Source: a virus
Virus genome (UHGV): UHGV-0392495
Direction: 5' to 3' (one strand)
DNA: 43,892 nt
This document shows, one piece after another, positions 2,518 through 36,903 of this stretch; within the stretch, counting starts at the first letter, position 1; each line of letters opens with the position of its first letter. Below the pieces are notes generated by a model. The model saw only the letters and a program-made list of their open reading frames with translations, did no database searches and was not told the DNA's origin. Both the position numbers and the translations under genes were made by a program.

Positions 2518-3564
2518 ATGAGTACACAGACAATAAAAGCTGAAATCATCAACAATGTACTGGTAGCAATGTCCTTATATATCATGGAGCAGCAGACTCT
2601 TACCATTCTGCAAAATGTAATGCAGCAGGAATTGGTTAGGGTGAACATGGAAGAAATAACTACACTTCCAGTAGAAAGAAAAAATGATATAAGTCAACGG
2701 AATCAGTACATAATACAGTTATTCCTGATTAAAAAGCGTGATTTAGCAAGAGGAACCAAAGAAAACTATCTTAATTCCATACGAAGATTGCTGACAGAGA
2801 TAAGCACAAAATCACTGGACCAGATGGACACCACTGATATTGATTGGTATTTATCGCGATATGAAATCAGAAATGTGTCCAGTGGAGGAAAGAAAAACCA
2901 GCCTAGCACTTATAATAACGAGCGCCGTTTTTTGTCAGCATTCTTTACATGGATGCGCCTTGAGAAGCTTATTACAGATAATCCGGTAGAGTCTATACCG
3001 GCTAAAAAAGTACCCATTAAACCAATTGATTACTACAGCCCGGAAGAATCTGCAAGATTAAGGGATGCGTGCAAAAATATCCGCGAGAGGGCCTTGCTAG
3101 AGGTACTTCGAAGTACTGGAGCCAGGATAGGGGAGATTGCAGAAATAACTCTGGACCAGATAGACATGAGAACCGGCGATATTTGGATACAGGGAGAGAA
3201 AGGCGGAAGATATCGGACTATCTATCTGGATGATGATGCGCGTCATTACTACGGACTGTATTTGGACAGCAGGAAAGATGATTGTCCATATATGTTCCCA
3301 CGCTCCAGAAAACCGTATGGAAAGATGACTACTTGTGGATTTCGGGCGATATTGAAAACCATAAGGAAAAGAGCTGGACTCACATGTCGCGTATATCCGC
3401 ATAAGTCACGAAAGACGCTGGGGATGAATCTGAAAAATCGAGGGGTTGATATTGGAACCATACAGGAAATTATGGGACATGCAGACCCAGGAGTTACGGC
3501 ACGTTATTATGCACAGTCTAACCCGCGCACTCTTCGTTCAGTAAGAGAAAGAGTTAATGTGTAG
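2518..3564 (+). CDS. tyrosine site-specific recombinase (XerD/phage integrase family), second recombinase of the element
   Basis: ATG 2518 after GAGGAGG; C-terminal catalytic-domain hallmarks visible (LLEVLRSTGARIGEI..., HKSRKTLGMNL..., GHADPGVTARYY = R...HxxR...Y pattern); not adjacent to attP. Confidence 0.85.
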   Translation: MSTQTIKAEIINNVLVAMSLYIMEQQTLTILQNVMQQELVRVNMEEITTLPVERKNDISQRNQYIIQLFLIKKRDLARGTKENYLNSIRRLLTEISTKSLDQMDTTDIDWYLSRYEIRNVSSGGKKNQPSTYNNERRFLSAFFTWMRLEKLITDNPVESIPAKKVPIKPIDYYSPEESARLRDACKNIRERALLEVLRSTGARIGEIAEITLDQIDMRTGDIWIQGEKGGRYRTIYLDDDARHYYGLYLDSRKDDCPYMFPRSRKPYGKMTTCGFRAILKTIRKRAGLTCRVYPHKSRKTLGMNLKNRGVDIGTIQEIMGHADPGVTARYYAQSNPRTLRSVRERVNV

Positions 3565-4111: not shown

Positions 4112-4996
4112 CTACCGCCTCCTTGCATCCGTATATGGAGTATTCTTATCAATCAGCCACTCATTTCCCAGCCTTTCTGCCTCAAGCGTCCCTCTCAGAA
4201 TCTTCTGACGGACATTAGCCGGATTGACCCCATGGATTTTCGCATATTCCCTGATGGTGACATAATTGTACAGGGGACCATCATCATTACCAGCCGTTAC
4301 ATCGGGGGACGAGGTAAGCCATTGAAGGGCGTGACATATCTTTTGGCTGGCAACGTATCCTGGGGCGCAGACTGGCCTATCGTCAACGGATTCCTCCGCC
4401 TTAGGATTCAGGAATAGCTTTGCCATATCCCCCTGCTTCCTCAGGTTCTTGGGGTATCCATATGGGATATATGCCGGTTCCCCGGTAATTGAGCATAATC
4501 CATTGATTGGGAGACTGTCCACATAGTACCGTGTCCAATCATAGTTAATGGTGGTCCTCAATCCAGGAATCCCAAACGACACAGAGATACTCTTAATAGG
4601 GACAGGGATAGAGTCTATAATTGGTTTAAGCTCATGCAGTAACAGGCCGGTACCAGCATGGGCATATACTGCTTTGGCGAGCGGGTCATCGACATGCGTA
4701 ATATAATCCTCAAGCTGTTCCATGTATGCAGCAAACCTGTCCTCATACCCTGGAAGGTTCCCAACATAAGACAGGTTATCATGTATCAAGTGAGGAGCTA
4801 TGTTGGATGTCCGGTATTCTGACTGCTCCGTGCAGGGAACGATTGCTGTCTCATTGATATACATTGCGCCCATGAAGTTCCCGTTCGGGTTAAGGAGGAC
4901 CCCAATCTTGGGGGTTATTGTGGTATGTGCCGGTGGTGCCACGACCTTATAGGATTCAAGCTTATCATATAGGTCTAATAGTTCCTTATATATCAT
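4112..4996 (-). CDS. 294-aa protein with C-terminal excisionase/MerR-type HTH (HTH_17-like) and unrecognised N-terminal domain
   Basis: RBS GGAGGA 7 nt before ATG; C-terminus YVTIREYAKIHGVNPANVRQKILRGTLEA matches HTH_17-type DNA-binding motif; N-terminal 220 aa has no family I recognise. Confidence 0.6.
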   Translation of the reverse strand: MIYKELLDLYDKLESYKVVAPPAHTTITPKIGVLLNPNGNFMGAMYINETAIVPCTEQSEYRTSNIAPHLIHDNLSYVGNLPGYEDRFAAYMEQLEDYITHVDDPLAKAVYAHAGTGLLLHELKPIIDSIPVPIKSISVSFGIPGLRTTINYDWTRYYVDSLPINGLCSITGEPAYIPYGYPKNLRKQGDMAKLFLNPKAEESVDDRPVCAPGYVASQKICHALQWLTSSPDVTAGNDDGPLYNYVTIREYAKIHGVNPANVRQKILRGTLEAERLGNEWLIDKNTPYTDARRR

Positions 4997-5010: not shown

Positions 5011-5352
5011 TTATCTTATCTTCCTCACGACTTCTGGCCCATGCATTACTATTTCATGCTCGTCCTCACCATGTTCCCATCCCCAGGATGAATCAATGTA
5101 GACGAGGTATACATATTTTCCTTGATAGTTGGCAGTCAGTGCTTCATTGTAACTATCCAACTCGCCAAAATCCGCATCAAGAACCCCATCAAGATAATCA
5201 AGGAAATCTGTATCATCAGATACCCGTATTGCGCAGGTGCCTGATAGTTCCTCGCCGGTATCAACACCATTTTCAAAGCGGTGGCTTGCAGGTATCTCAT
5301 CACCAATACTAAATTCCCTATCGTCAAATCTGATTCCCCATATCTTACTCAT
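5011..5352 (-). CDS. small highly acidic protein (113 aa, Asp/Glu-rich)
   Basis: first gene of leftward operon; GGAGG upstream; strongly acidic composition (DNA-mimic-like or immunity-like); function unknown. Confidence 0.5.
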   Translation of the reverse strand: MSKIWGIRFDDREFSIGDEIPASHRFENGVDTGEELSGTCAIRVSDDTDFLDYLDGVLDADFGELDSYNEALTANYQGKYVYLVYIDSSWGWEHGEDEHEIVMHGPEVVRKIR

Positions 5353-8014: not shown

Positions 8015-9448
8015 ATGGGACTAATAACATGGGCTAAAAAGGTGATAGGAATGATATTCAAGCGACAGGCAGAAGAAGATTTTAATGTTGAGTCAGTAGT
8101 ATCCCCGGAGATGGAAAGCAAGATTGCAGAGTGCGCCAATATCTACCGTGGTACGCCCTATTGGGTGAACGCTGACGATAACGTTAAGACAATCAATTTT
8201 GCAAAGGCCATCTGCTCCGAGACGGCCCGGCTTGCTACCCTGGCGATTGGGATACAGATTGATGGGAGCGCGCGGGCGGCGTGGCTCCAGGAGCAGATTG
8301 ACAAGATATATTTCCAGATTAGGCATTGGGTAGAATATGGTATGGCCTACGGCACAATCATCCTTAAACCAAACGGTAAGGGGCTGGACATATTTACACC
8401 GCAAGATTTTATTGTTACTGACTGTGACAATGAAGGTATCTATGGGATTGTATTCAAAGATAGTTACAGCGAGAACGATAAATACTATACCCGGTTTGAG
8501 TATCATCGGTTTGTCGAGGTCAAGGACGGAGAGAACACCTATTACCCATATTACATATCCAATAGAGCTTATGTGTCTCACTCTGCAAAAAGTGTGGGGG
8601 ACCCGATAGCATTAAACAGGACTAAATGGTCTGACTTACTTCCAGAGACACCACCTATACTTAAGTCCAATAATGAGAAAATAGATGGTCCCATGTTTGG
8701 AATACTACGCACTCCACAGGCTAACAATTTGGATATTTCATCCCCTTTAGGATTGCCAATGTTTGCCGAGGCCATAGAAGAATTAAAGGACCTTGATGTG
8801 GCATACAGCCGGAATGTGGGTGAAATATTTGACAGTGAGAAAATCATATTGGCAGATGACCAGCTAATGTTTGGAAGCGGTACAAACATTAAAGGCCGTT
8901 ATGCTGGTATGAAGAATGAAAAACTTCCTCATTATGTGAGAAATGTGTTTGGGAATGGACAGGAATCATTTTATCAGGAGATTGTCCCATCATTAAACAC
9001 TGATACCAGAATTACAGGTATTAATAATCTTCTTTCATTTATTGGATTTAAATGTGGATATTCTAATGGATATTTTGTGCTTGATGAAAAAACAGGTATG
9101 GTCACAGCAACACAGGTAGAAGCTGACGACCGCCGAACTATCCAGTTAATCAAGGATGTGCGCGACAAACTGGAAAGCTGTCTTGACGGGGCAATATATG
9201 CGCTTAATGTATATGCGGACCTGTACGGACTGGCACCAGTCGGAAACTACGAAATCACATATGATTTTGGGGACATTACATACAACCGTGAGGAGGACCG
9301 GGCAAGATGGTGGCAATATGTTGTGCAGGGAAAGGTACCGGCATGGATGTATTTTCGGAAGTTTGAAGGATTATCCGAAGAAGATGCAAAGGCTATGGTA
9401 CAGGAAGCACAGCCGAAGAATGGACCGAGGATGTTTGAGGAGGAATAA
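8015..9448 (+). CDS. portal protein (SPP1 gp6-like)
   Basis: 477 aa, immediately after terminase; size/position/composition typical of siphovirus portal. Confidence 0.75.
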   Translation: MGLITWAKKVIGMIFKRQAEEDFNVESVVSPEMESKIAECANIYRGTPYWVNADDNVKTINFAKAICSETARLATLAIGIQIDGSARAAWLQEQIDKIYFQIRHWVEYGMAYGTIILKPNGKGLDIFTPQDFIVTDCDNEGIYGIVFKDSYSENDKYYTRFEYHRFVEVKDGENTYYPYYISNRAYVSHSAKSVGDPIALNRTKWSDLLPETPPILKSNNEKIDGPMFGILRTPQANNLDISSPLGLPMFAEAIEELKDLDVAYSRNVGEIFDSEKIILADDQLMFGSGTNIKGRYAGMKNEKLPHYVRNVFGNGQESFYQEIVPSLNTDTRITGINNLLSFIGFKCGYSNGYFVLDEKTGMVTATQVEADDRRTIQLIKDVRDKLESCLDGAIYALNVYADLYGLAPVGNYEITYDFGDITYNREEDRARWWQYVVQGKVPAWMYFRKFEGLSEEDAKAMVQEAQPKNGPRMFEEE

Positions 9449-15762: not shown

Positions 15763-16109
15763 AGCCAGTCGCCAGTCGCAGAGCCATACAGATTACAGAA
15801 CGTAATTTGCATGGCTTTTTCTTTACATAGAACCTCCTCCAATTGCACATGTCCTTAATAGAAACAGGTTCTAATGCATAGCATAAACAACCTGGAGGTT
15901 GAAAAGCGGATGCAATTTCCGGCATGTGCATTCCTTCTAAAGGCTATCCTCCTCCCGTAATGGAGATAGAAAAAACTTGTCAGTTATGACCTGGACGAAA
16001 CTGAAAAATGATACGGCATTGTTTTGGTGGGATATCGGCGGGCTGACAGCATTTCAGAGTACATATGCGGCGCAAAAAGGCGTGACGAGGAGTTTTCAAG
16101 AAATGAAAT

Positions 16110-16182
16110 CGGGAAATAGCTCAGTTGGTAGAGCAGCAGCCTTATAAGCTGTGTGTCAGAGGTTCGATTCCTCTTTTCCCGA
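16110..16182 (+). tRNA. tRNA, anticodon UAU (reads AUA; Ile2-type), 73 nt, no encoded CCA
   Basis: hand-folded: acceptor CGGGAAA/TTTCCCG (7 bp), D-arm GCTC-AGTTGGTA-GAGC, anticodon arm GCAGC-CTTATAA-GCTGT, T-arm AGAGG-TTCGATT-CCTCT, discriminator A. Confidence 0.7.
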
Positions 16183-16331
16183 TGTAGTCGGGTCGCTCCC
16201 GGATGATGTGAGAGCACGCAGAATGCCTCACAGAGAATGACAATGCCTGCTGAAAACTACTGCGATAGTTCCAGGGACTAGGACACGGGACTGAAATTCG
16301 CAGTGTGACAATCTAAGCAGGAACTGCATCA

Positions 16332-16420
16332 TGAGGATTCGCCAAGCGGTTAAGGCACCGGGTTTTGACCTCGGCAAAGAAGGAACACTCTTTACGCTGG
16401 TTCAAATCCAGCATCCTCAG
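16332..16420 (+). tRNA. type-II (long variable arm) tRNA, Ser-like body with G73, anticodon loop reads UUG
   Basis: hand-folded: acceptor TGAGGAT/ATCCTCA, D-arm GCC-AAGCGGTTAA-GGC (as in tRNA-Ser), anticodon arm CCGGG-TTTTGAC-CTCGG, 21-nt variable arm with 5-bp stem AAAGA/TCTTT, T-arm GCTGG-TTCAAAT-CCAGC, discriminator G. Confidence 0.6.
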
Positions 16421-26050: not shown

Positions 26051-27844
26051 GTGTTTTTAAAGCAATCCATATTATCTGACGCAGAACAAAATACTGAGGG
26101 ATTAAAGATTGTTTATGACGACTTGGCCCCTTATGCCAAAGAAAATAGTACAGCATCCATTACAATACCCGGACTAAGACCGAGAGTAGGACTTCATCCA
26201 GGTGCCGGTTTACATCCGCGTGGGACAATAACAGAGCAGGAATTTCCAGAATTAAAACGAGATGATATTTCTTATCCTGGGTATGCTCTATGCTTTCCAC
26301 GGTTTTCTCTATTGAATGGAAAGTATATCAATTTTCCAGATAATCCGCTTCCGTATGGGTATATAAGCCCTGAAGTATCAAATGAGCAAGGATTGTTCGG
26401 ATATGTTAAGCAAAGCCAAGGACTTAAACCCCAAATAGGTTTGCATCCAGGAATGTTTTTATATCCTAAGTCAACCACTGAAAAGTTAATCGAATCCCCC
26501 ATGATTACAGTAACCTTTAATCAAAAATTCACCAGTGTAGGATTGCTCTTTACTTTTAATATGATGTCCGGAGATTATTGTACACGAATGAGAGTAAAGT
26601 GGTATGCAGATAATAACCTCTTGTCAGATATGGAGTTTTCCCCGGATTCAGTGCGATATTTTTGTAATAACTATGTGAGAGGATATAACAAACTTGAAAT
26701 TACGTTTTTGCAGACATCAAAACCCATAAGGCCAGTATTTGTCACCAGAATAGATTATGGAATATACCGTGATTTTCTAGACAACGAATTATTGGAAAGA
26801 AACTGTTTGCAAGAAATCAATGCAATATCAGAAAGTATAAGTATTAACACCTTGAATTTCACGGTCAGGACAACATCCAATATACCGTTTGATTTACAGA
26901 AAAAGCAGAAACTTACTTTATATTTCAACGGTGAGTTGATAGGAAATTTTTATCTCAAAAACGGTGCAAGGAAAAACAAGACGGATTACCATATGGACGC
27001 GCATGATGCAGTGGGGGTATTGGATGGTAATGAATTTGTTGGAGGAATATATACAGGCCAGCCGGTTTCTGAAGTATTAGAGAAAATATTTGAGAATGAG
27101 GATTTTAATTATATGTTGGATGAATCATTTTCAAATATTCCACTGCATGGATATATCCCATATACCACCAAAAGAAATGCATTGGTATATATTTGCTTTG
27201 CTATTGGGGCTATTGCAGATACAAGCAATTACGATGGCATTGTTATCTATCCACAGGAGAATGCTTTGAGTGGTGAATTTTTGAATGATGAAGTATTTTC
27301 AGGTGTTACATTGGAGCATTCTGATATTGTCACTGGAATCCGTTTGACAGTCCATTCTTACCAGAAATCAAACGAAACGCAGGAATTGTATAATGATGAT
27401 TTGAATGGCACGGCAGAAGTTATTTTTAGTGAACCTTATCACAGTTTGGAGATAACTGGTGGTACCATTGGTCAGTATGGTGATAACTATGCTTACATAA
27501 CCGGAACCGGTGGCAATGTAACGCTAACTGGTAAAAGATATAACCATCTTACCACTTCAATCCTTAAGGAAAATCCAGATATTGTATTTAACAAAAATAT
27601 TCGCGAAGTAACAGATGCAACATTAGTTTATAGCGGAAATGCGCAACAAGTGCTTGACCGCGTATATGCATATTACCAGCAAGCAGAAAATGTTGTTGGT
27701 GACGTACTTATAGGAAACAAAAAGTTAGGACAAAAAGTTAAAATTGATACAGATTATGATGGATACCGCATAGGCATTATTGAGAGTTACAATTATAGTT
27801 TTTCTCCCAATGAAATCAAGGCGGAGGTAAAAATACATGAGTGA
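26051..27844 (+). CDS. distal tail / baseplate-region protein (597 aa)
   Basis: GTG 26051 with GAGGAGG 7 nt upstream; internal duplicated motif GLRPRVGLHPGAGLHPRG / GLKPQIGLHPGMFLYPKS. Confidence 0.5.
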   Translation: MFLKQSILSDAEQNTEGLKIVYDDLAPYAKENSTASITIPGLRPRVGLHPGAGLHPRGTITEQEFPELKRDDISYPGYALCFPRFSLLNGKYINFPDNPLPYGYISPEVSNEQGLFGYVKQSQGLKPQIGLHPGMFLYPKSTTEKLIESPMITVTFNQKFTSVGLLFTFNMMSGDYCTRMRVKWYADNNLLSDMEFSPDSVRYFCNNYVRGYNKLEITFLQTSKPIRPVFVTRIDYGIYRDFLDNELLERNCLQEINAISESISINTLNFTVRTTSNIPFDLQKKQKLTLYFNGELIGNFYLKNGARKNKTDYHMDAHDAVGVLDGNEFVGGIYTGQPVSEVLEKIFENEDFNYMLDESFSNIPLHGYIPYTTKRNALVYICFAIGAIADTSNYDGIVIYPQENALSGEFLNDEVFSGVTLEHSDIVTGIRLTVHSYQKSNETQELYNDDLNGTAEVIFSEPYHSLEITGGTIGQYGDNYAYITGTGGNVTLTGKRYNHLTTSILKENPDIVFNKNIREVTDATLVYSGNAQQVLDRVYAYYQQAENVVGDVLIGNKKLGQKVKIDTDYDGYRIGIIESYNYSFSPNEIKAEVKIHE

Positions 27845-30086: not shown

Positions 30087-30638
30087 ATGAATAACATAGA
30101 AAATATCCAAGAATATATACCTACTGTGTATGTTAATGACTCTGAGCCAGATTTGGATGAGACAAACTTAAACAAAACAGAACAGGCAATAAAACGGGTA
30201 ACCGATGCAGCCAATAAAGCAGTTGATGCATTAAAGCAACTGGACCGGGAGAAGTTAGCGTTATCTGCTATATCTAACGTATTATCTGATGCTACAGATA
30301 AGGTTCCATCATTGGCTTTAGCTAATACAATGCAGCTCGCGATTAATGACTTAAATAGCAATTTAGGAAACTTACAAGGATTATGTAATGACCTGGATAC
30401 GCTATGGTCTCAAGATTATGTGTCCTGCGTTGCTATTAAAAGATTTTCTGGTACTACCCTAAATACACCATATAAGCAAGATGCTGCTCTTACAGCAGGA
30501 CGCGCCGATGGATTTGTAATCTCATTATACTTGGAGGCTTGGGGGGTACAAGTGGCGGCCTATGTTGGTAATGCTGGAGATTGCCTATATCGGAGAGGGC
30601 TTGATAACGGAACCAAAACAATCTGGACTACAATATGA
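30087..30638 (+). CDS. short tail fibre protein: coiled-coil N-terminus + C-terminal knob-like domain (currently expressed variant)
   Basis: RBS TAAGGAGG; C-terminus ...CLYRRGLDNGTKTIWTTI; contains left inverted repeat 30353-30366 at the N-domain/knob junction. Confidence 0.5.
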   Translation: MNNIENIQEYIPTVYVNDSEPDLDETNLNKTEQAIKRVTDAANKAVDALKQLDREKLALSAISNVLSDATDKVPSLALANTMQLAINDLNSNLGNLQGLCNDLDTLWSQDYVSCVAIKRFSGTTLNTPYKQDAALTAGRADGFVISLYLEAWGVQVAAYVGNAGDCLYRRGLDNGTKTIWTTI

Positions 30639-31092
30639 TTATCTGATGTTACGAGATACATCGAATGTAATATAGCCCTTATCTACCCCGTCAACAAAGA
30701 ACTGTACATAGTTTTGTGTATCATTAAGTTTGTTGACATACAAGGACACTGCCTTTCCAGATGATACACCTGTAGTTTTGACTGCGTTGAAAAAATCGGA
30801 GCCTTGAATGCTATAACCCCATTCACTCCAAGTATTGGTGTCAATATTAAATGTGCGAAAGTATATTTTTCCAGTGGCAAAATCACGTATTGTTTGGCAT
30901 GGGTAACTATTCCCTGTTGATAACTCAACTTTTAAGGTAAATGCCTTTTGGGTGGGACTTCCTATTAAACTGGCCGCAACAGTATTATTAGGACAGTAAT
31001 AATTACCAGGTGTTTTATAGCCAGTTAGATTTGCTCCACTTGGTATTGCGGTCCCCCCAGACAGTTTATAATAACCTTCTAAATTGCTATTT
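30353..31092. other. putative invertible segment bounded by perfect 14-bp inverted repeat AAATAGCAATTTAG
   Basis: left copy 30353-30366 (+ strand, codons N-S-N-L of fibre gene), right copy 31079-31092 (reverse complement; codons N-S-N-L of cassette); same codon phase in both. Confidence 0.6.
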
Positions 31093-32410: not shown

Positions 32411-32696
32411 AAGCGCCAGAACCTAACTCTGACGCTTCCATATAATGTACCATCTTCGGAAATATGCAACACGAAATGCAACACGGAGCCTGGAAACCGC
32501 ATAAAACCGTTGTATTTTACGGGTCCGATTCCCGTCAGCAGCTTTTCCATAAAACCTTGTAGATACGGGAAAAACAACGTATTTACAAGGTTTTTTCATG
32601 TTTTAAAACAGCACTTCCTATGCCTACCACGGTGGAAAATATGCTATTTTTTATTATATATGCAACACGATGCAACACGGAAAATATGTTATTTTA
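32411..32696. promoter_or_regulatory. attP-like region with multiple direct repeats (candidate Int/Xis arm sites)
   Basis: TGCAACACG x4 (32465-32473, 32477-32485, 32661-32669, 32671-32679); CATAAAACC(G)TTGTA x2 (32500-32514, 32548-32562); GGAAAATATG(C/T)TATTTT x2; lies at 3' end of integrase. Confidence 0.5.
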
Positions 32697-33785
32697 TTAC
32701 ATGCTGTTTAATTTTTCAAAGTGCTTATTAATTTTTTTGTTCTGCCGGACGCTTTCCAGGTCAATTACATTTCTATATACTGCTTTCATGATATTGTCGC
32801 TGGCCCATCCCCCCCGTTGTAAAATATATTGGTCCGGTATGCCTATGGCGTGCATAATGGATGCAGCATAATGCCGGAGGTCATGGAATCTGAAGTGGGG
32901 TATATCAATCTTTTTGAGTACTCGTCCGAATCGGTGTGTGATGTAATCCGGGTTCATGTCAACCAATTTTCCTTTTTTTCCAGATATCCGGTCAATTACA
33001 AATGCTGGCATTTCTACATCCCGTGTGCTATCATCCGTCTTAGGCTGTTTGATATACCATTGATTGTCTGGCCCCTTGACCATATTATCTCTTACATGGA
33101 TAATTTTTCCATCCACGTCCTTATCGGTTAGAGCACTTATTTCCCCTCTCCTAAGTGGACCAAACGCAGCCAGTAATACAGCTATCTCCAAATCAGTGCC
33201 TTTAATAGCGTCCAGCAACTTTTTAATATCATTGTCATTTGGGCAATATAAGTTAGGACGTTTTTTCTGCGGCAGTTTAACGTTTAAAGTTAATTCGGGT
33301 GCAAACATTTCCAGTGTTGGAGATAACAGACCATAGGCATTTCTTACCGTCTTTGGAGATAGTTTTTTTGCAGCTAAATTACTTACCCATATTTGCACAG
33401 ATGGACTTGTCAGTTCTGAAAGCTTTTTTTGGCCAAATGCGCCGCCGAAATACTGTCTTTGCAGACCAGTGTACCCTCTAAGCGTAGAAGGGCTTAAAAC
33501 ACCGCTCTTGGCGTTTAAATAGCGTTCAATAGCATCATTAACTGTAATATCTTCTTCGTCCTCTTCCGGTACGTTGTATTGTTCTATGGGCTTGTCCTTC
33601 ATATCTAATTTCCATCTAGCTGCCATTTCTTGTGCGATTTTGCGTGATGGGGCAACAAAACTTTTGTAATGCCGTTTACCTTTCTCATCCGTATATAAGT
33701 ATAATTGTACACGGATATTTTTGGATGGTAGTTCGCCTATTTTCTTTTTCGGGGCTTTCTTTGTCATTTTCCTTTCCTCCTTCAA
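32697..33785 (-). CDS. int: phage integrase (tyrosine recombinase) adjacent to attP
   Basis: 362 aa; Lys-rich N-terminus (arm-binding type); catalytic-domain hallmarks (R...HDLRH...Y; ...HFRFHDLRHYAASIM...); canonical position next to lysogeny module. Confidence 0.85.
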   Translation of the reverse strand: MKEERKMTKKAPKKKIGELPSKNIRVQLYLYTDEKGKRHYKSFVAPSRKIAQEMAARWKLDMKDKPIEQYNVPEEDEEDITVNDAIERYLNAKSGVLSPSTLRGYTGLQRQYFGGAFGQKKLSELTSPSVQIWVSNLAAKKLSPKTVRNAYGLLSPTLEMFAPELTLNVKLPQKKRPNLYCPNDNDIKKLLDAIKGTDLEIAVLLAAFGPLRRGEISALTDKDVDGKIIHVRDNMVKGPDNQWYIKQPKTDDSTRDVEMPAFVIDRISGKKGKLVDMNPDYITHRFGRVLKKIDIPHFRFHDLRHYAASIMHAIGIPDQYILQRGGWASDNIMKAVYRNVIDLESVRQNKKINKHFEKLNSM

Positions 33786-35807: not shown

Positions 35808-36551
35808 ATGGAAGAGATTATAAAAATCAATTACGATGCTGAACAGCCGACAGTATCGGCAAGAGATTTGCATGAGGGATTAGAGATTGGCACACGGTTT
35901 AATGATTGGTTTCCGAGGATGGTAGAGTATGGATTTTTAGAAGGAAAAGACTTTTACTCAAAAAAGAGTAAAACCTCAGAAATCGGCGGAAGACCATCAA
36001 TAGACTATGAAATCACTGTAGACATGGCAAAGCAGATTTGCATGATACAGCGTACCGAAAAGGGCAGACAGTACCGCCAGTATTTCCTTGACTTAGAGAA
36101 AGCATGGAACACACCGGAGCAGGTCATGGCAAGGGCGTTAAAAATGGCAGGAAAGACCATTGACAAACTAAAGTCACAAAACACTGTACTCCTGGAGGAC
36201 GTTCAGCGTATGAAACCGAAAGAAATATTCGCTGATGCTGTGGCAACTAGTCATACATCAATTCTTATTGGTGACTTGGCGAAGCTGATTAAACAAAACG
36301 GCGTAGACATCGGACAGAAAAGACTATTTTCTTGGTTGAGGGATAATGGCTATCTGATTAAACGGAATGGTTCTGAATGGAATATGCCAACACAACGAAG
36401 TATGGAGGCAGGATTGTTTGAGGTAAAGGAAAGTACAGTGAATAATCCTGATGGTTCCGTAAGAATAAACAAGACTACCAAAGTTACTGGAAAAGGGCAG
36501 CAGTATTTTATCAACAAGTTTTTAAGGAGGGAAAATGGAAGAAATCAGTAA
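35808..36551 (+). CDS. antirepressor (Ant N-terminal domain + KilA-C/ORF6C-like C-terminal domain)
   Basis: INYDAEQPTVSARDLHEGLEIGTRFNDWFPRMVEYGF resembles AntA/AntB N-terminal domain; size 247 aa. Confidence 0.65.
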   Translation: MEEIIKINYDAEQPTVSARDLHEGLEIGTRFNDWFPRMVEYGFLEGKDFYSKKSKTSEIGGRPSIDYEITVDMAKQICMIQRTEKGRQYRQYFLDLEKAWNTPEQVMARALKMAGKTIDKLKSQNTVLLEDVQRMKPKEIFADAVATSHTSILIGDLAKLIKQNGVDIGQKRLFSWLRDNGYLIKRNGSEWNMPTQRSMEAGLFEVKESTVNNPDGSVRINKTTKVTGKGQQYFINKFLRRENGRNQ

Positions 36552-36903
36552 AGTATTACAAAGTAATCCGGCACTATTAGACCTTTTTTCGACAGCTGTA
36601 ATCTGTGATGAAGAGCAAATAAAAACAGCAACAATTGTATTAAATAAGTTGAAAAGAAAAAATGATGTAGAACACATGAAAAATAGAGAAATCCTTCGCA
36701 AGCAGTTGGAACTACTTGCAAAGGAATCCAAAAGATGTATGCCGACTGAATTGGCTGATTTATCCAATTCTGCTGCTGAGATTTACGAAAAATTATCTAA
36801 TCCTCATCCATTCGGCATCGCGATTTTCCTGGGAGTATTGATAAATTTTTCTTTCGGTTTCTTTAAAAAGTTTATAAATCTCTTCCGGGGTCATGGAAGA
36901 TAA
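36535..36903 (+). CDS. hypothetical protein
   Basis: 122-aa ORF; 3' third is antisense to 36793-36981(-). Confidence 0.35.
   Translation: MEEISKVLQSNPALLDLFSTAVICDEEQIKTATIVLNKLKRKNDVEHMKNREILRKQLELLAKESKRCMPTELADLSNSAAEIYEKLSNPHPFGIAIFLGVLINFSFGFFKKFINLFRGHGR

Follow-up and report, generated by a model that had tools for sequence, protein, structure and literature searches.

The fibre gene of the virus genome UHGV-0392495 (a stretch of 43,892 nucleotides, hereafter the window) very probably forms, together with a silent open frame on the opposite strand, a two-cassette site-specific inversion switch by which a temperate phage of Lachnospiraceae (Enterocloster-type) exchanges its receptor-binding tip. 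Both orientations of the switch segment exist in nature, with breakpoints located in short inverted cores. The locus consists of the following parts:

30087-30638, plus strand: open reading frame (ORF) of the fibre gene, 183 amino acids, ending in TGA at 30636-30638

30087-30352, plus strand: constant N-terminal part of the fibre protein (residues 1-89), mostly a helical shaft or anchor, as judged from the ORF, its relatives and an AlphaFold model

30353-30366, plus strand: left inverted repeat (IR-L), containing the 12-bp core AAATAGCAATTT at 30353-30364, which codes for N90-S91-N92-L93

30365-30638, plus strand: expressed cassette of type T06, a β-rich knob of ~90 amino acids ending in TGA, present as a silent copy in the metagenomic contig L001

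30639-31080, minus strand: silent, startless cassette of type T07, comprising a predicted proximal pyocin-knob-like module, a linker (..SIQGSDF..) and a distal module, with its stop codon TAA at 30641-30639

31079-31092, minus strand: right inverted repeat (IR-R), forming the first codons (N-S-N-L) of the silent cassette, with the 12-bp core at 31081-31092

31097-31095, minus strand: TAG that closes the silent frame at its 5' edge, one codon (CAA) ahead of the repeat

The two frames meet tail-to-tail, with the TGA of the fibre gene and the TAA of the minus-strand frame abutting without an intervening nucleotide (TGA-TTA). As described in the initial annotation, which was made from the window alone, the minus-strand frame (31094 to 30642) is closed by a TAG at its 5' edge; it comprises 151 sense codons and has no usable start, because the earliest in-frame ATG, GTG or TTG is found only at 30749. 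The silent cassette is thus untranslatable in its present place. The perfect 14-nt inverted repeat AAATAGCAATTTAG (30353-30366 and 31079-31092) is likewise present as reported, and both of its arms read AAT-AGC-AAT-TTA, encoding N-S-N-L in the frame of their own cassette (residues 90-93 in the plus-strand gene). IR-R lies 35 nt upstream of the ATG of the next gene. The two cores are inverted and 716 bp apart, so that the core-to-core segment measures 740 bp, and the 12-mer occurs nowhere else in the window. A promoter and terminator scan of the 740-bp segment returned nothing over background. By itself, the 14-nt repeat is weak evidence: 100 first-order Markov simulations gave an expectation of 0.25 perfect 14-nt inverted repeats at most 1 kb apart per window, against three in the actual sequence. 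Its weight comes from the reading frame, the position and, above all, the comparative data. The other two perfect repeats are TCAAAAATTCACCA (26521-26534 / 27271-27284), inside a 624-aa tail gene, and GAAACCGAAAGAAA (36212-36225 / 36848-36861), in the early region; no inversion was seen at the 26521/27271 pair, across which the relatives are colinear.

We postulate the following mechanism for this arrangement. The promoter-proximal constant part (residues 1-93) ends in a core, with its inverted counterpart 716 bp downstream and each cassette starting inside a core. Conservative recombination between the cores would flip the 740-bp segment and join the constant part in frame to the other cassette, so that the fibre gene would have two alternative products, of 183 and 239 aa, whose tips are unrelated. 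The lysis genes downstream would continue to be transcribed without interruption, and the exchange of tips would be expected to change the host range.

The predicted inversion product is found in a public metagenome. Residues 1-93 of the plus-strand gene were joined to the minus-strand cassette, and the resulting 239-aa sequence was searched against 5.8 billion proteins. The top match, P0001, is 239 aa long, is covered in full and differs at a single position, V46I in the constant part (reported as 100% identity after rounding). Its only contig, L001 (Logan SRR22675200, 32.8 kb), shows the gene order of the window and is colinear over 3494 bp, without a gap, with the window inverted in silico (blastn). 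Against the native window, the same contig aligns in three pieces whose junctions are the two 14-bp repeats at 30353-30366 and 31079-31092. The middle 740 bp are inverted at 99.73% identity, compared with 98.75% in the left flank and 92.5% in the right one. In L001, the present knob of the window (T06) is the silent, startless copy and T07 is expressed as P0001; the initial annotation had anticipated both this in-frame fusion and the silencing of the present knob. Two further Logan contigs (L002 and L003) are 100% identical to the window and carry its own orientation.

Relatives of the locus reveal a general two-cassette architecture. Loci were collected through the constant N-terminus (IMG/VR and GTDB genomes), through other fusion proteins and by a lineage-agnostic scan for core pairs, and cassettes were clustered into types at 80% identity. 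In total, ~25 distinct loci were obtained with the 12-bp core at both ends; they comprise at least 21 cassette types behind at least six unrelated constant N-termini (...LAINDL-NSNL, ...DDIATA-NSNL, ...ALGTI-NSNL, ...AIVTQ-NSNL, ...VK(A/D)DI-NSNL and ...QLDTV-NSNL). Further N-termini, beginning with MADLGK..., MAAPEGY... and MQLTPNYK..., are represented at the protein level only. In all of them, the constant part ends in AAATAGCAATTT and is followed by an expressed cassette, by another one encoded on the opposite strand and by the inverted 12-mer. Every relative of sufficient sequence length has a single inverted partner core, and the number of cores and of complete cassettes per fibre locus is invariably two. 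The constant part of the window recurs at 98-100% identity in dozens of proteins with unrelated C-termini. Apart from the 12-mer, lineages have different flanks and cassette types have different interiors. The conserved element is therefore narrower than the 14-bp repeat first described: bases 13-14 belong to the cassettes, and the 12-mer is kept in every relative with one variant, G6->C. Hosts named in the records are Enterocloster hominis, E. aldenensis and a 'Dorea' metagenome-assembled genome; the locus has no DNA-level counterpart among the phage records of INPHARED. The pair T00/T02 is a second one that occurs in both orientations, with T00 expressed in four loci (L007, L009, L218, L221) and T02 in three (L011, L022, L219), of which L022 is an Enterocloster hominis genome.

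Two other arrangements were encountered among the relatives. Six IMG/VR loci (L016-L021, at ~8280-8600) have fibre N-termini 54-59% identical to that of the window, a junction reading ...LLTKLNGEM (DNA AAGTTAAATGGCGAGATG) and, after the stop of the expressed cassette, a startless cassette in direct orientation that starts with AAATGGCGAG. Two of them (L020 and L021) stop at the junction motif AAATGGCGAG (about 8285-8294) or immediately ahead of it. These loci are probably multi-cassette shufflons with another core. The IMG/VR contig 2595698222_000001 (L137) carries at 2316-2798 an orphan core-flanked cassette pair of 53 and 104 aa, adjoined by lexA- and cspA-like genes, with a third core copy 1.7 kb away at 4471-4482; the contig also encodes an Xer-like recombinase at 63% identity. 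Having no fibre N-terminus, it was not counted as an additional lineage.

Throughout all loci, both cassettes are open from core to stop. Their stops are 0-8 nt apart, often reading TGATTA/TAATCA in the relatives, and thus leave no room for a terminator or spacer. No stop or frameshift interrupts any silent cassette of the relatives (~25 loci), and dN/dS (Nei-Gojobori) between copies of the same type is 0.05-0.4, with silent copies in the same range. The silent cassettes are thus maintained and show purifying selection; a remnant would decay. The alternative that the minus-strand frame of the window is a decaying remnant or a chance open frame, next to a coincidental repeat, deserves practically no credence. 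Although perfect 14-nt inverted repeats spaced by up to 1 kb are by themselves nothing unusual, as the simulated expectation and the three observed pairs illustrate, the frame is homologous to tail-fibre knobs, stays intact in all relatives with dN/dS far below 1 and exists elsewhere as a full protein (P0001 on L001), so that the flipped form already refutes this view.

The core itself behaves as a DNA site. In loci found by protein similarity or from their other end, it is fixed at the DNA level, including synonymous positions: its two Asn codons and its Ser codon, one of six possible, are invariant apart from the variant G6->C. The longer cassettes offer an internal comparison, as they contain a second peptide junction, I(T/Q)N(A/S)D(F/L), in which AAT and AAC, GCG, TCG, TCT and TCC, and GAT and GAC are interchangeable. 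This junction was considered as a second recombination site and rejected because it varies at synonymous positions. Furthermore, the 12-mer was not found in 615 kb of other DNA of related phages, including the regions near their Xer-like genes. Such conservation is at the level of the DNA and argues that the 12-mer is a site, not a mere linker. It forms a small dyad, AAAT-AGCA-ATTT. The variant AAATACCAATTT (G6->C), which reads N-T-N-L, occurs at the left site opposite a wild-type right core in L223-L230 (e.g. L223, 3267-3278); a constant part with this variant is joined to four different cassettes (P0060, P0073, P0097 and P0102). The variant is also found at a silent cassette (P0029) and in another N-terminus (P0019). 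The most economical reading of this distribution is that core position 6 stays with the flank and positions 13 onward travel with the cassette, which would place strand exchange in core positions 7-12, CAATTT (30359-30364 / 31081-31086).

Structurally, the cassettes are real fibre tips. The silent cassette matches a PHROG tail-fibre family and shows 34-48% identity to long-tail-fibre distal subunits of Acinetobacter T4-like phages (tblastn). In the AlphaFold model of the 239-aa fusion, residues 101-188 reach a predicted local distance difference test score (pLDDT) of ~90, and the top Protein Data Bank matches in Foldseek are the knob regions of R2/R1 pyocin fibres (6CT8, 6CL6, 6CL5; E 3e-5 to 7e-4), superposing with a root-mean-square deviation of 2.6-4.1 Å over ~95 residues. 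Staphylococcal phage receptor-binding proteins rank after the pyocin fibres. According to this model, the first module of the silent knob folds like an R-pyocin fibre knob, and P0067 bears the NCBI name 'pyocin knob domain-containing protein'. The 183-aa protein is predicted to form two helices (25-72 and 76-107), constituting a shaft, and a small β domain (114-183, strands 114-173) at pLDDT 70-85. The structure predictions called for by the initial annotation thus assign a pyocin-knob-like fold to the silent tip and a small β domain to the expressed one. The T06 knob is rare, with one close representative among 1.8 billion, and aligns with a widespread family of small knobs (TLNTPYK...GNGF...W..W). 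Neither knob, nor the neighbouring tail genes scanned, matched Pfam or NCBIfam. The fibre gene follows the tape measure and distal tail genes and precedes a 137-aa gene in the XkdW position (by synteny only), a gene in the XkdX position (Pfam XkdX match on the L115/L116 orthologues) and an M15/choline-binding endolysin; this position fits a fibre.

Two tyrosine recombinases of the window were proposed from the outset as catalysts:

2518-3564, plus strand: Xer-like tyrosine recombinase, 348 aa if counted from the start codon that most gene calls choose, with a Pfam Phage_integrase match (1e-30) and a SAM-like domain

32697-33785, minus strand: arm-type phage integrase, 1.6 kb downstream of the switch, with an attP core ending at ~32546

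No serine invertase had been seen in the initial annotation, and a phmmer search of 265 stop-to-stop frames of at least 60 aa with Hin and γδ resolvase queries gave no significant match in the window, at limited sensitivity. The genes neighbouring the segment contain no resolvase domain. The Xer-like gene lies 27 kb from the switch and is the nearest non-integrase tyrosine recombinase. It consists of a simple SAM-like plus catalytic domain, an architecture that includes known invertases, and has matches to XerA/XerD/XerC-like models of NCBIfam below their cut-offs. Its family is common in Lachnospiraceae prophages (449 database matches, and 222 in IMG/VR), and the gene is accessory, being located beside the terminase in 16 of 80 phages with a related terminase among the matches listed. 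Core pairs and this gene lie on shared contigs in fibre lineages A and B, and also in a third one (IMGVR 2855258187_000003), where the gene is 58% identical. Close relatives carry both recombinases together with the switch, which made their co-occurrence non-discriminating there, and a search for Xer-family genes near the switch in other lineages used a hidden Markov model that was too narrow and missed the known integrase.

That the integrase catalyses the same switch is very unlikely. It is the recombinase closest to the segment and is 87-98% identical in lineage A and B phages; its attP core, however, resembles a tRNA 3' end (...GGGTCCGATTCCCGTCAGCAGCT) and has no resemblance to AAATAGCAATTT, arm-type integrases need complex att sites, and L115 possesses the switch with no integrase in the 10 kb downstream. 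Homology to the E. hominis prophage L022 stops at ...ACGGGTCCGATTCCCGTCAGCAGCT, near 32546, a tRNA-3'-end-like sequence unrelated to the 12-bp core. The attP core is located at ~32518-32546 of the window, with the homology ending in ...TTTTACGGGTCCGATTCCCGTCAGCAGCT, a sequence that resembles a tRNA gene at its T-arm and acceptor 3' end, and repeated ATGCAACACG motifs at 32460-32680 could be arm-type sites. A core-like site near attP, AAATAGCATATT (32638-32649), has two mismatches, which is within chance, and was discarded.

The flip would be catalysed in trans by a site-specific recombinase, for which the phage's own Xer-like enzyme is the best candidate. Given a switch, we assign this enzyme about an even chance and a host or other trans-acting enzyme a smaller share. 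From the initial pair of candidates, the Xer-like recombinase is plausible but unproven. Global invertases acting in trans are known from other bacteria, namely Mpi of Bacteroides and RecV of Clostridioides difficile. A host-encoded (Enterocloster) invertase that operates the same switch in trans, with no phage gene involved, is possible yet rather doubtful. The system is kept in a phage whose Xer-like gene is no longer intact (contig 083526, see below), precomputed Pfam annotations show no recombinase less than 10 kb from the switch of L115, a phage with a different backbone, and the same core serves at least six unrelated fibre genes in phages of related hosts; a trans-acting invertase has also been proposed for a comparable bifidophage inversion that lacks a flanking recombinase (Mavrich et al. 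2018, PMC6109161). Set against a host enzyme are the lack of an identified host candidate, the restriction of core pairs outside fibre genes to a single orphan cassette pair (L137), the co-occurrence of the Xer-like gene with the switch in three fibre lineages and the difficulty of seeing why else a phage that integrates should carry a second Xer-like recombinase.

Several observations weigh against the proposed switch or its candidate enzyme. Both orientations were seen between samples, in separate assemblies, and exact-protein look-ups returned no sample holding both (P0001 versus P0084; P0047 versus P0114). The orientations of the T00/T02 pair split into two sequence clusters, so that one inversion event could explain them. 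A G6->C core facing a wild-type partner would prevent exchange, should position 6 belong to the overlap region, and tyrosine recombinases would be expected to have a longer conserved site than 12 bp. The Gin, Cin, Min, Rci, Rin and BV01 shufflon systems have a recombinase gene next to the segment; the present locus has none. The Xer-like gene is internally deleted in the IMG/VR contig 3300045988_083526, where residues 34-70 abut residues 324-348 (L284, 3625-3811), and this phage (L096) still has the core pair and both cassettes intact; on the 55-kb switch-bearing contig 022808, the gene was not detected.

Assembly breaks in several independent contigs point towards heterogeneity within samples. 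Two contigs end at the last base of IR-R (L005, L228), a third ends one base beyond (L238), and another starts at a core (L130). Three more (L012, L013 and L014, the first from an isolate genome) end 54-55 nt past the base before IR-L, which is the signature of a de Bruijn branch at k=55 with two left contexts beyond the core. These ends are suggestive, not proof. A metagenome scan with the constant part plus core yielded five contigs from five assemblies.

Evolutionary mosaicism offers a different account of the same loci. Here, the NSNL-coding 12-mer would be a conserved linker for rare illegitimate or short-homology module swaps between co-infecting phages, and the spare cassette would be recent and passively carried. 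Cassette pairs are indeed reassorted, T09 being paired with T08 or T13, and T00 with T02, T12, T01 or T18; breakpoints also fall at the non-site linker and at the stop-stop junction, the orientation of T00/T02 is compatible with a single event, and no invertase lies adjacent. We nevertheless consider this account improbable. It does not fit the strict presence of two inverted cores and two complete cassettes per locus, the fixation of the core but not of the other linker at synonymous positions, or the purifying selection on silent cassettes, with no decay in ~25 loci. Moreover, the flipped form is 99.7% identical inside the segment against flanks differing by 1.3-7.5%, and assemblies break at the cores.

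The cores also bound exchange between genomes. A fibre gene with an unrelated and much longer N-terminus (L131) shares with L007 only the core-to-core segment, at 98.2% identity (blastn). In the phage L115, homology to L009 is confined to the T00 cassette (core to stop), and homology to the window is confined to the opening 300 nt of the silent cassette, between its core and the second junction (blastn). Through the same cores, complete segments as well as individual cassettes would be able to pass from one phage fibre gene to another, unrelated one. Cassette partners are also reassorted, as described above. Recombinase-mediated cassette exchange is an attractive but unproven explanation for this core-bounded sharing; the two L115 breakpoints other than cores (stop junction and second junction) look like ordinary recombination. 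The stop-stop junction of the window lies at 30636-30641, and its counterpart in relatives is the breakpoint for a single-cassette exchange between phages. We tentatively propose that the 12-bp core may serve many unrelated fibre genes of Lachnospiraceae phages as a common docking site, at which a trans-acting recombinase (the phage Xer-like enzyme or one of the host) flips the segment and also exchanges cassettes between co-resident phages. The tips would then form a communal pool that can be mobilised site-specifically, an inter-genomic shufflon without a linked invertase. Behind this idea stand the core-bounded homology between L131 and L007, the recurrence of the same cassettes behind at least six N-termini, and the orphan pair of L137.

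Tail-fibre inversion switches are textbook knowledge for enterobacterial phages such as Mu and P1. Like the present locus, the G segment of Mu (Gin), the C segment of P1 (Cin) and the e14 (Pin) and p15B (Min) systems join a constant 5' fibre part by inversion to alternative 3' parts, with inverted crossover sites inside the coding sequence, and the outcome there is alternative host range. The Gin, Cin, Pin and Min systems comprise a serine invertase beside the segment, 26-bp gix/cix sites, a Fis-dependent enhancer and alternative assembly-chaperone genes in the segment. In contrast, the present locus has no detected serine recombinase and no adjacent recombinase. Its lineages conserve a 12-bp core only, with unrelated flanks, instead of the 26-bp imperfect-dyad sites (gix/cix/hix), and its segment is filled by two abutting cassettes instead of including chaperone genes. 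In the R64/IncI shufflon, inversion by the tyrosine recombinase Rci swaps the C-termini of the adhesin PilV, an analogy to the exchange suggested here. In the sfx sites of R64, only the spacer and one arm are conserved; the core of the present locus, with a conserved AAATAG, a putative overlap CAATTT and a variable other side, would resemble this asymmetry. R64 differs in that it is a plasmid system with a pilus adhesin, four segments, seven sfx sites and an adjacent rci, as opposed to a phage fibre with two cassettes.

Closer parallels come from gut bacteria. The Rin shufflon of Bifidobacterium and Eggerthella prophages combines a constant (Rc) with variable (Rv) receptor-binding C-termini at 11- or 8-bp sites and is presumably driven by a tyrosine recombinase other than the integrase (Mavrich et al. 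2018, PMC6109161; PMC8778435). Both systems belong to temperate phages of Gram-positive gut bacteria and have very short sites and constant plus variable tip parts. Rin is encoded directly beside a multi-cassette array, whereas the present locus has one cassette pair and a candidate enzyme 27 kb away that is dispensable for maintenance in 083526. The nearest precedent is a second, unflanked inversion of ~500 bp at an 8-bp repeat in the tRNA-Met-integrated bifidophages 689b-1 and Bb423phi2, for which a trans-acting invertase was proposed (PMC6109161). There, too, a structural gene exchanges its 3' end with a small neighbouring gene, and no recombinase flanks the inversion; the case is represented by two genomes and involves genes of unknown function, as compared with fibre knobs, a 12-bp core and dozens of loci in several fibre lineages here. 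A BV01-like phage of Bacteroides/Phocaeicola has an active shufflon with 10-bp directional motifs at the distal end of a tail-fibre gene (PMC13596623, preprint 2026). It shares with our locus the tail-fibre tip of a temperate gut phage and differs by its three cassettes, flanking recombinase and Bacteroidota host.

Taken together, one shufflon-type feature is present in the locus, namely a short conserved site at the 5' end of each cassette, in frame with the constant part, while a dedicated tyrosine recombinase beside the cassettes and more than two cassettes per fibre locus are absent. The locus is closer to the tyrosine-recombinase shufflons Rin and BV01 than to the Gin-type family, although it functionally follows the logic of Mu G/Gin. 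The comparison with Mu, P1 and R64 in the initial annotation was hence right for how the locus works, while the evidence does not support membership in those families. Tail-fibre inversions are listed generically by Milman et al. (2023), and a full-text literature search found no description of such a switch for Lachnospiraceae/Enterocloster phages.

The remainder of the window contains further features of interest. The terminase ORF at 6195-7805 matches Terminase_2 (small subunit, residues 3-98) as well as Terminase_3 and 3C (large subunit) and is a fused small/large terminase, because both subunit domains are in one ORF. Related phages with the same fibre module have terminases only 57-58% identical, indicating a mosaic backbone. 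Between the Xer-like recombinase and the terminase lies a two-gene insert (4112-4996 and 5011-5352, minus strand) of opposite orientation and higher GC content (0.49). Its 294-aa ORF at 4112-4996 matches the N-terminal half of Cas8c/Csd1 (Pfam Cas_Csd1, E 1.8e-17) and may represent a truncated Cas8c that the phage carries as an anti-CRISPR decoy. Two tRNA genes, Ile-TAT (16109-16183) and Gln-TTG (16332-16420), are located in an apparent plus-strand ORF gap upstream of the tail genes.

The locus is not a new principle; it is notable for its minimal site, its presumably unlinked enzyme, its putative communal cassette pool and its wide distribution in gut metagenomes. Tail-fibre inversion has been reported before for phages of Actinobacteria and Bacteroides, and the present case concerns the Lachnospiraceae, dominant and poorly cultivable gut Firmicutes. 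The core and its enzyme may offer a minimal site and enzyme pair for engineering phages of Firmicutes. For assembly and annotation, the locus implies that contigs break at the cores and that silent cassettes are mis-called as short genes. Predictions of host range would need to consider two specificities in one genome. As a whole, the switch may help to explain how receptor-binding modules spread between phages in the course of their evolution.

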